A program made the position numbers. Shown piece after piece: positions 7,740 to 10,700 of a DNA stretch of 64,000 bases (position 1 is the first letter of the stretch; each line of letters starts with the position of its first letter). The stretch lies in assembly GCF_057098645.1 (NCBI RefSeq), contig NZ_CM169472.1; one strand, given 5' to 3'.

Positions 7740-10700
7740 TAAAAACCGGAAATAACGCCAGAAATGGTGGAAAAAATAGCCTAAATAGGCTGATTCGATG
7801 TGTTTGCGGGAAAAAAATCGGCCCAGATCCGCGAAATTTTAATCAACGAGTCAGCTTGGGAAGAAATGACCTGCTTATTCGCACCTTCCCTAAGCCTAAA
7901 CGGCGATGTCCGCGGGTGAAATCATAATCATAAAATATATTCCCCCCCAGAAGCCATTTATCAAAATTATGTCTTACACCTAAACCTATATTACCTATCG
8001 TGCGTTCTTCTTTTCGTTGCGCAGAAAACTGACTGAAATAGACTGTGCTCTGATTGTCATACCAGGGAACAAAATAGTCGATCGAACTGCCGTCCAGATC
8101 GCCACCCTGACCGATGGAAAGGTTAGAGCGAACTTTACCATAAGGAGAAAGCGCACCTTCAATATAAGACTGTGCAGATGATGTGATTTGCCCTTGCAGA
8201 TAGCTTCTCGCCTGGGATTCAAGAGCTTCTGGAGTCAGGTTCTCAAAGCCCTGCTGGGCGGACTCGGTAACGTAATTGGCACCACGTTCCTTGAAAGATT
8301 TGCCTTTGTTACTTTGTTCCTCTTGTTGAGCCGTTTCGCTTGCCAGATCAGGTAATGAAGATTCGCTTTGCTGGTGATGCTGCCAACTTACTGATTTAGT
8401 GTATGATGGTGTTTTTGAGGTGCTCCAGTGGCTTCTGTTTCTATCAGCTGTCCCTCCTGTTCAGCTACTGACGGGGTGGTGCGTAACGGCAAAAGCACTG
8501 CCGGACATCAGCGCTATCTCTGCTCTCACTGCCGTAAAACATGGCAACTGCAGTTCACTTACACCGCTTCTCAACCCGGTACGCACCAGAAAATCATTGA
8601 TATGGCCATGAATGGCGTTGGATGCCGGGCAACCGCCCGCATTATGGGCGTTGGCCTCAACACGATTTTCCGCCATTTAAAAAACTCAGGCCGCAGTCGG
8701 TAACCTCGCGCATACAGCCGGGCAGTGACGTCATCGTCTGCGCGGAAATGGACGAACAGTGGGGATACGTCGGGGCTAAATCGCGCCAGCGCTGGCTGTT
8801 TTACGCGTATGACAGGCTCCGGAAGACGGTTGTTGCGCACGTATTCGGTGAACGCACTATGGCGACGCTGGGGCGTCTTATGAGCCTGCTGTCACCCTTT
8901 GACGTGGTGATATGGATGACGGATGGCTGGCCGCTGTATGAATCCCGCCTGAAGGGAAAGCTGCACGTAATCAGCAAGCGATATACGCAGCGAATTGAGC
9001 GGCATAACCTGAATCTGAGGCAGCACCTGGCACGGCTGGGACGGAAGTCGCTGTCGTTCTCAAAATCGGTGGAGCTGCATGACAAAGTCATCGGGCATTA
9101 TCTGAACATAAAACACTATCAATAAGTTGGAGTCATTACCCGCTTTGCTTAATATTTATCTCCGGTGCCGCATAAGCAGCACCAGAAATAACGATTAGCG
9201 TTATATAGCGAATCCATCGCAGCATGTTTTTCCCTGTGAAAATTTAATTCTGAAATAATGTCTAATATTGTATTCCAGATAGCACAGGAACTGCACTCCA
9301 TAAGTGCTAAATATAATCTTAAAATTATAAGAATGTGACTTCACACATTTTTAATTAGTCGTTAATCTAATAGGAAAGAGATTATAATATTTATATTAGG
9401 AATATATAATGTGAAATCATATATTCCAGTGATATTAAACAATGACAAATTCAATACGGGTTTTAGAAATTAAACCGTGACCATGCTGGCAGAAATAATC
9501 CACCGCACCACACGCTTTTAATACCTGCAAAGGTTGGTGGCAGTCAGGACAAAGAGCCTGGACTATGAAATCTTTGTTACACGTTGCGCAGTGAGTAGCC
9601 TCGCCATTACGTTCGAGAGGGTTTTGGCAGATTGGGCAGCTGAGTTCCATAAATGATCCTCACATTTTTATGGATTTCCCTCTCCATATGGAAAGGGAAA
9701 CCAGATAAGTAATTACTTACTTTTCTTGATATGCTTCATCAGGCGCTTACGCTTGCGCATCTGGGTCGGCGTCAGGGTGTTACGCTTATTCGCATACGGG
9801 TTTTCCCCTTCTTTGAACTGAATACGAATCGGCGTCCCCATCACATCCAGAGACTTGCGGAAATAGTTCATCAAATAACGCTTGTAAGAATCCGGCAGGT
9901 CTTTTACCTGGTTACCGTGAATCACCACAATCGGCGGGTTATAACCACCAGCGTGGGCATATTTCAGCTTCACACGACGACCGCGTACCAGCGGCGGTTG
10001 GTGATCTTCAACAGCCATCGTCATGATGCGCGTCAGCATAGAGGTCCCCACACGACGGGTGGAGCTGTCATACGCTTCACGTACTGATTCAAACAAGTTA
10101 CCAACACCACTGCCGTGCAAGGCAGAGATAAAGTGCACACGAGCAAAATCGATAAAGCCCAGACGGAAGTCCAGCGTTTCTTTCACCTGCTCTTTCACTT
10201 CCTGACTCAGGCCATCCCACTTATTCACCACAATGACAAGTGAGCGCCCACTATTGAGAATAAAGCCCAGCAGCGAGAGATCCTGATCGGAAATACCTTC
10301 GCGCGCATCAATCACTAACATCACCACGTTGGCATCTTCAATGGACTGCAACGTTTTGATTACGGAGAATTTCTCTACAGCATCGGTGATTTTGCCGCGT
10401 TTACGTACGCCAGCGGTGTCAATGAGCACATACTCACGTCCATCGCGTTCCATTGGGATGTAGATGCTGTCACGCGTCGTGCCAGGCATGTCGTAAACAA
10501 CAACGCGCTCTTCACCAAGAATACGGTTAGTGAGTGTAGACTTACCTACGTTCGGACGACCCACAATCGCCAGTTTGATCGGCAGACTTTGCGGGTCGAA
10601 GTCGTCTTCCTCTTCTTCTTCGCCGTTCTCTTCCGCTTCAAATTGCGCCCAGTATTCAGCGTCTTCGTCGACTTCCTCTTGCGGTGCGAGATCTTCCATC

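Follow-up and report, generated by a model that had tools for sequence, protein, structure and literature searches.

In a 64,000-nucleotide (nt) stretch of Escherichia coli DNA (GCF_057098645.1, NZ_CM169472.1; here called the window, whose positions serve as coordinates), a complete copy of the insertion sequence IS1 lies inside sinH, the gene of an intimin-like inverse autotransporter. This arrangement almost certainly goes back to one simple transposition event, in which an intact IS1 entered the chromosomal gene at its 5' end; the gene is a decaying pseudogene that has been hit several times. Among E. coli, close relatives of the host are strain C325 and O145:H28. C325 was the main comparison genome (locus L001), and genome searches were carried out at megablast sensitivity against 5426 complete RefSeq E. 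coli genomes. Insertion of IS1 with duplication of 9 bp is textbook knowledge, and the present insertion is of this ordinary, already known kind, a case of routine pseudogenisation; its importance is mainly one of annotation, in that sinH of this genome should be left out when virulence or vaccine-target genes are scored.

The preliminary description of this DNA had claimed a 768-bp IS1 flanked by a direct repeat, and it was correct to the base in both coordinates and content. The two flanking copies of CGCTTTGCT are the sole occurrences of this sequence, or of its reverse complement, in the 64 kb, and the chance of a given 9-mer matching at a fixed spacing is about 4e-6. The terminal inverted repeats of the element, left (IRL) GGTGATGCTGCCAACTTACTGAT and right (IRR) GGTAATGACTCCAACTTATTGAT, match at 18 of 23 positions. 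Alignment with a reference copy, which had been proposed as a check, used the annotated IS1A of E. coli K-12 MG1655 (NC_000913.3, 19796-20563) and was ungapped and end to end, with 760 of 768 positions identical (99.0%; 8 substitutions), so that the boundaries in the window are those of the reference element. Over the same 768 positions the copy is identical to RefSeq elements labelled "IS1-like element IS1B family" on many E. coli chromosomes and plasmids. The flanking repeats are thus equal and the match to IS1 is complete, the two points on which the preliminary description had staked its claim. IS1 sequences matching the window query are present in 4970 of the 5426 genomes, at a median of 11 places per IS1-positive genome, while the window itself contains one copy.

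The coding organization of the element is also that of IS1. The window copy has insA at the same element position as K-12 insA1, the insB' frame with its DDE transposase domain, and a single A6C motif (AAAAAAC) at IS1 position 307. A simulated -1 slip at this motif opens a 232-amino-acid (aa) InsAB' frame, whose product reaches 243.8 bits with the NCBIfam IS1 transposase equivalog (transpos_IS1; cut-off 100). In every feature of the IS1 family that could be tested, namely length, inverted repeats, insA/insB' with A6C, 9-bp duplication and identity, the copy agrees with the family, and no structural difference separates it from IS1A of K-12 or the RefSeq IS1B isoform. Judged by its sequence, it appears to hold everything required of a transposition-competent element. 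An Rfam scan gave no match inside or beside IS1.

The site without IS1 was found in relatives. We restored it as a 990-bp query by joining window positions 7894-8372 to 9150-9660, that is, by deleting IS1 and one repeat copy. It matched 48 of the 5426 genomes, each with 100% coverage; identity was at least 99% in 38 of these and 95-99% in the other 10, and the top matches, C325, XJ34 and XJ6-3, reached 99.9%. The matched gene is labelled "sinH: intimin-like inverse autotransporter SinH" in RefSeq and adjoins a gene for a zinc-ribbon protein (yfgJ). Comparison of the window with C325 gave three gap-free blocks (1-6694, 7889-8372 and 9141-16000), which overlap in C325 by exactly 9 bp at the IS1 site, where C325 carries a single copy of CGCTTTGCT (L001, 12471-12479), and by CTAA plus two chance bases at a second site. 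Colinear flanks that overlap by exactly the duplication are the classical demonstration of simple insertion with target duplication and all but rule out a rearrangement breakpoint in this genome. The remainder of the window is colinear with C325 at 99.96% identity and has no further insertion sequences, on which ground a Shigella origin, at first suspected from the insertion-sequence content, was rejected. As a side observation, 216 bp of yfgJ form part of the restored query. Given that no more than these 48 genomes match at the sensitivity used, the yfgJ allele beside the island may be divergent from the common E. coli allele.

The interrupted gene, called sinH-like in the preliminary description, is a true SinH equivalog. 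It is encoded on the minus strand, where yfgJ and sinI are its neighbours, and runs from an ATG at 9225 to a stop at 5068. In silico removal of the two elements, each together with one copy of its duplication, gave a reconstructed coding sequence (CDS) of 2181 bp that differed from that of C325 SinH (726 aa) by one codon, a nonsense change at Trp400 (W400*). With Trp400 restored as in C325, the protein scores 1486.5 bits against a cut-off of 999 with NCBIfam NF033423, over residues 1-726 and profile positions 1-730. The gene thereby shares its full-length SinH profile, inverse autotransporter (IAT) barrel and neighbourhood with SinH/IatB of E. coli and Salmonella, but here it is a pseudogene with three lesions. 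According to PMC6714894, IatB is the orthologue in E. coli of SinH from Salmonella, and a sinI-like gene lies downstream of it. The presence of this allele in only 48 of 5426 complete genomes by megablast marks it as distinct from the alleles of extraintestinal pathogenic E. coli of groups B2, D, F and G discussed in PMC9937491.

IS1 had been placed after codon 28 and, as measured, stands one base further on, after the first base of codon 29 (CDS nt 85). Translation from the native start reads MLRWIRYITLIVISGAAYAAPEINIKQSG and then stops after 29 codons at TAA TGA inside the IRR. Near its N-terminus the basic residues R3 and R6 occur together with a hydrophobic core (residues 5-12), and an AYA|A motif follows (by eye and hydropathy), suggesting that the stub consists of a Sec signal peptide, MLRWIRYITLIVISGAAYA, and about 10 mature residues. 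On the other side of the element, the sinH frame of the first body fragment has its last stop at 8463, inside IS1, and no in-frame ATG, GTG or TTG occurs between that stop and the junction with the second insertion sequence; the body fragment is therefore untranslatable even if transcribed. The Pfam IAT_beta domain (PF11924) is split, with profile positions 3-129 on the first fragment and 127-279 on the second. No intact, expressible sinH frame is found, the gene being broken by IS1 after nt 85, by the second element after nt 559 and by W400*. By its coding sequence, sinH here is a pseudogene with three lesions in which the capacity to encode SinH is wholly lost.

The preliminary description had further stated that the native promoter and the signal peptide were uncoupled from the gene body. 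The separation of the intergenic region and the signal-peptide codons from the body by IS1 is confirmed, while the position of the promoter is putative. The AT-rich spacer between yfgJ and sinH is its probable location: GC content is 0.34 in the 400-nt interval 9201-9600, which contains the spacer, and two weak sigma-70-like matches (9 of 12 positions each) occur on the minus strand at 9415-9386 and 9339-9310, with a scan total not above that of shuffled sequence. Inside IS1 the sole promoter-like match, at 8380-8407 on the plus strand, points inward; the scan, which also covered terminators, detected none of these, nor any promoter consensus leading out of IS1 into the sinH body.

Table 1. 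Features of the interrupted sinH locus, in window coordinates (nt, nucleotides; aa, amino acids)
Feature	Position	Strand	Remarks
sinH body fragment 2	5068-6693	-	CDS nt 556-2181; rest of barrel and passenger; carries W400*
ISKpn26 (IS5 family), 1196 bp	6694-7889	+	After sinH CDS nt 559; 4-bp duplication CTAA at 6690-6693 and 7890-7893
sinH body fragment 1	7890-8372	-	CDS nt 77-559; N-terminal half of beta-barrel; 100% identical to C325 sinH
Left 9-bp target-site duplication CGCTTTGCT	8364-8372		sinH CDS nt 77-85, gene-body side; exact match to 9141-9149
Complete IS1, 768 bp	8373-9140	+	IRL 8373-8395, IRR 9118-9140; antiparallel to sinH
insA, 91 aa	8428-8703	+	Pfam Zn_ribbon_InsA 3e-21, HTH_Tnp_IS1 1.7e-30
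insB' reading frame, DDE transposase domain	8622-9125	+	Pfam DDE_Tnp_IS1 2.3e-78, profile positions 1-131 of 131
AAAAAAC -1 frameshift site	8679-8685	+	Joins insA to insB'
sinH 5' stub	9135-9225	-	Start at 9225; 28 native codons (signal peptide and 9 further residues) followed by Gly and TAA TGA from the IS1 IRR
Right 9-bp target-site duplication	9141-9149		Promoter and signal-peptide side
yfgJ-sinH spacer, 209 bp, AT-rich	9226-9434	-	Presumed site of native sinH promoter

The second insertion sequence belongs to another family, consistent with the earlier statement that two different IS families had landed close together. It is ISKpn26, 100% identical to RefSeq copies labelled "IS5-like element ISKpn26 family"; it shares its family with IS5 proper but is not IS5 itself, showing 91.4% identity and 5 gaps with respect to IS5A of K-12. 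Its transposase contains a DDE_Tnp_1 domain and reaches 367 bits with the NCBIfam model of the IS5 family. In the uninterrupted gene the IS1 and ISKpn26 sites (nt 85 and nt 559) are 474 bp apart. The third lesion, W400*, was absent from the preliminary description; it is a TGG to TGA change in the minus-strand codon at 6049-6051, where window position 6049 is T and C325 has C. In addition, we observed a G7 tract at sinH CDS nt 494-500 (window 7942-7948, C7 on the plus strand), which in relatives is G6 in locus L005 and G8 in loci L006, L007, L012, L013 and L021. This variation could reflect lineage-fixed frameshifts, slipped-strand switching, or sequencing error in some long-read assemblies.

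The left junction recurs outside this genome. An exact-protein look-up of the 315-aa open reading frame (ORF) downstream of W400* retrieved seven draft contigs (L014-L020), six from NCBI assemblies (GCA_015676305.1, GCA_032490215.1, GCA_015676215.1, GCA_032490195.1, GCA_029361185.1 and GCA_029357705.1) and one a metagenome scaffold of the European Nucleotide Archive (ENA; from ERZ28574757). All seven hold the exact 41-nt junction between the IS1 IRL and sinH, all are 100% identical to the window across W400*, and all are without ISKpn26. Since IS1 and W400* are both in place there and ISKpn26 is absent, ISKpn26 arrived last. The IS1 junction common to these sequences, scored along with whether ISKpn26 is present, is a convenient lineage marker. 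The 315-aa ORF was dropped as a strict lineage tag, because another locus, L021, gives the same ORF through frameshifts without W400*; a 316-aa version of the ORF with a GTG start is not on record. In one of the seven contigs (L015, 137-1564; GCA_032490215.1) we noted a called 475-aa ORF whose start codon is an antisense ATG within IS1 and which continues in frame through SinH residues 26-399; in the window this frame is closed by the TGA at 8463, and the two sequences differ at 8 positions in that part.

A few observations qualify the history as we read it. Neither the IS1 junction nor the ISKpn26 junction was found in any of the complete RefSeq E. coli genomes, and a literature search by assembly accession retrieved nothing. 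The right junction, at the IRR and on the signal-peptide side, is confirmed in the window only, and in contig L014 (GCA_015676305.1, JADAIL010000067.1, 4040-4843) the IRR side abuts wcaM, of the colanic acid cluster, with no matching 9-bp duplication. W400* without IS1, sought through its expected 399-aa product, is not on record, nor was any record found of IS1 without W400*; IS1 may have come before W400* and killed sinH, or may have landed in an already dead gene.

The wcaM join in L014 could be explained either by recombination between IS1 copies, with a large inversion, or by misassembly through the repeat, and it makes rearrangement at this copy conceivable in relatives. By extension, the IS1 in the window could itself be a rearrangement breakpoint, where IS1-IS1 recombination or the end of a composite transposon joined unrelated regions. 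We hold this to be extremely improbable, since both flanks in the window carry the identical 9-bp duplication and together correspond to one unbroken, colinear sinH in C325 and 47 other genomes, and since there is no second IS1 copy in the window; moreover, the L014 join may be a short-read misassembly, its IS1 having 4 differences from that of the window, as would fit several copies collapsed into one. A related concern is that an assembler misplaced IS1 in sinH, the element being multicopy, repeats being a classic source of misassembly, and the junction being missing from complete genomes. However, a precise 9-bp duplication is a signature of transposition that misassembly does not produce, and the IRL/sinH junction recurs in seven independent assemblies, one of which is the metagenome scaffold; an artefact is hence barely credible. 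No evidence was found that contradicts the insertion itself.

Another explanation accepts the insertion and concerns its cause, proposing that loss of SinH was selected, as pathoadaptation or immune evasion, with IS1 as the inactivating event. Lesions are repeated in the clade, where W400*, IS1, ISKpn26 and the G6/G8 frameshifts are joined by the sinH of O145:H28 RM13514, annotated as frameshifted; SinH is surface-exposed and immunogenic, and 26 of 334 sinH sequences had to be excluded from a previous study for premature stops (PMC9937491). From the RM13514 and published cases it is clear that sinH pseudogenes are not unusual. Several lesions are, however, equally expected from relaxed selection on a dead gene, intact sinH is kept in many close relatives, and the first lesion cannot be singled out, so that adaptive loss seems unlikely to us. 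A broader version, in which sinH of the clade related to C325 and O145:H28 is under recurrent selection for loss or for on/off switching, draws on the apparently independent lesions by G7-tract slippage (G6/G8), nonsense mutation, IS1 and ISKpn26, and we consider it still somewhat more doubtful. If it were true, some lineages would not need, or would be under selection to lose, a proposed vaccine antigen, and IS1 would mark one escape event.

Simple transposition into sinH is the best explanation of the arrangement. IS1 makes its transposase InsAB' by a -1 frameshift; the enzyme links the ends of the element to target cuts with a 9-bp stagger, and repair of the gaps duplicates the target. In the present case, InsAB' produced by slippage at AAAAAAC would have joined the IS1 ends to staggered cuts 9 bp apart in sinH, and their repair would have generated the duplication of CGCTTTGCT. 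Translation from the native start now ends after 29 codons in the IRR. The remaining 698 codons lack a start codon and a ribosome-binding site as well as the promoter and the signal peptide, and neither production nor export of SinH would be possible. The gene also carries W400* and the later ISKpn26, and is presumably no longer under selection.

In C325 the gene order is xseA, a ratA-like gene for a 2139-aa BIg21/InvE_AD repeat adhesin, sinI, sinH, yfgJ (zinc-ribbon) and der, and the window is colinear with it; sinH in the window thus shares the context of the CS54-type island, which lies between xseA and yfgJ. The sinI gene (4047-5012) is intact and scores 419.8 bits with NF040711, the SinI family. 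The ratA-like adhesin gene is open over the 1250 aa that fall within the window, with one substitution with respect to C325. Downstream sinI may nevertheless be affected by the loss of sinH, through polarity or through loss of a partner. Polarity on sinI and the ratA-like gene is plausible; more speculatively, SinI would lose its presumed outer-membrane partner or exporter, by the analogy with ZirT/ZirS/ZirU raised in PMC6714894.

Two further observations concern other parts of the window. The spacer that separates sinI from the ratA-like gene contains, at positions 3926-3968 on the plus strand, a match to the Rfam small RNA family ES036 (CssrF) with 52.4 bits against a gathering score of 37.6. 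The only other difference between the window and C325 is a 5.2-kb stretch (45143-50352) that is missing from C325, where a truncated hcaB directly adjoins yphE at the corresponding point; C325 thus seems to have lost this stretch, rather than the window to have gained it.
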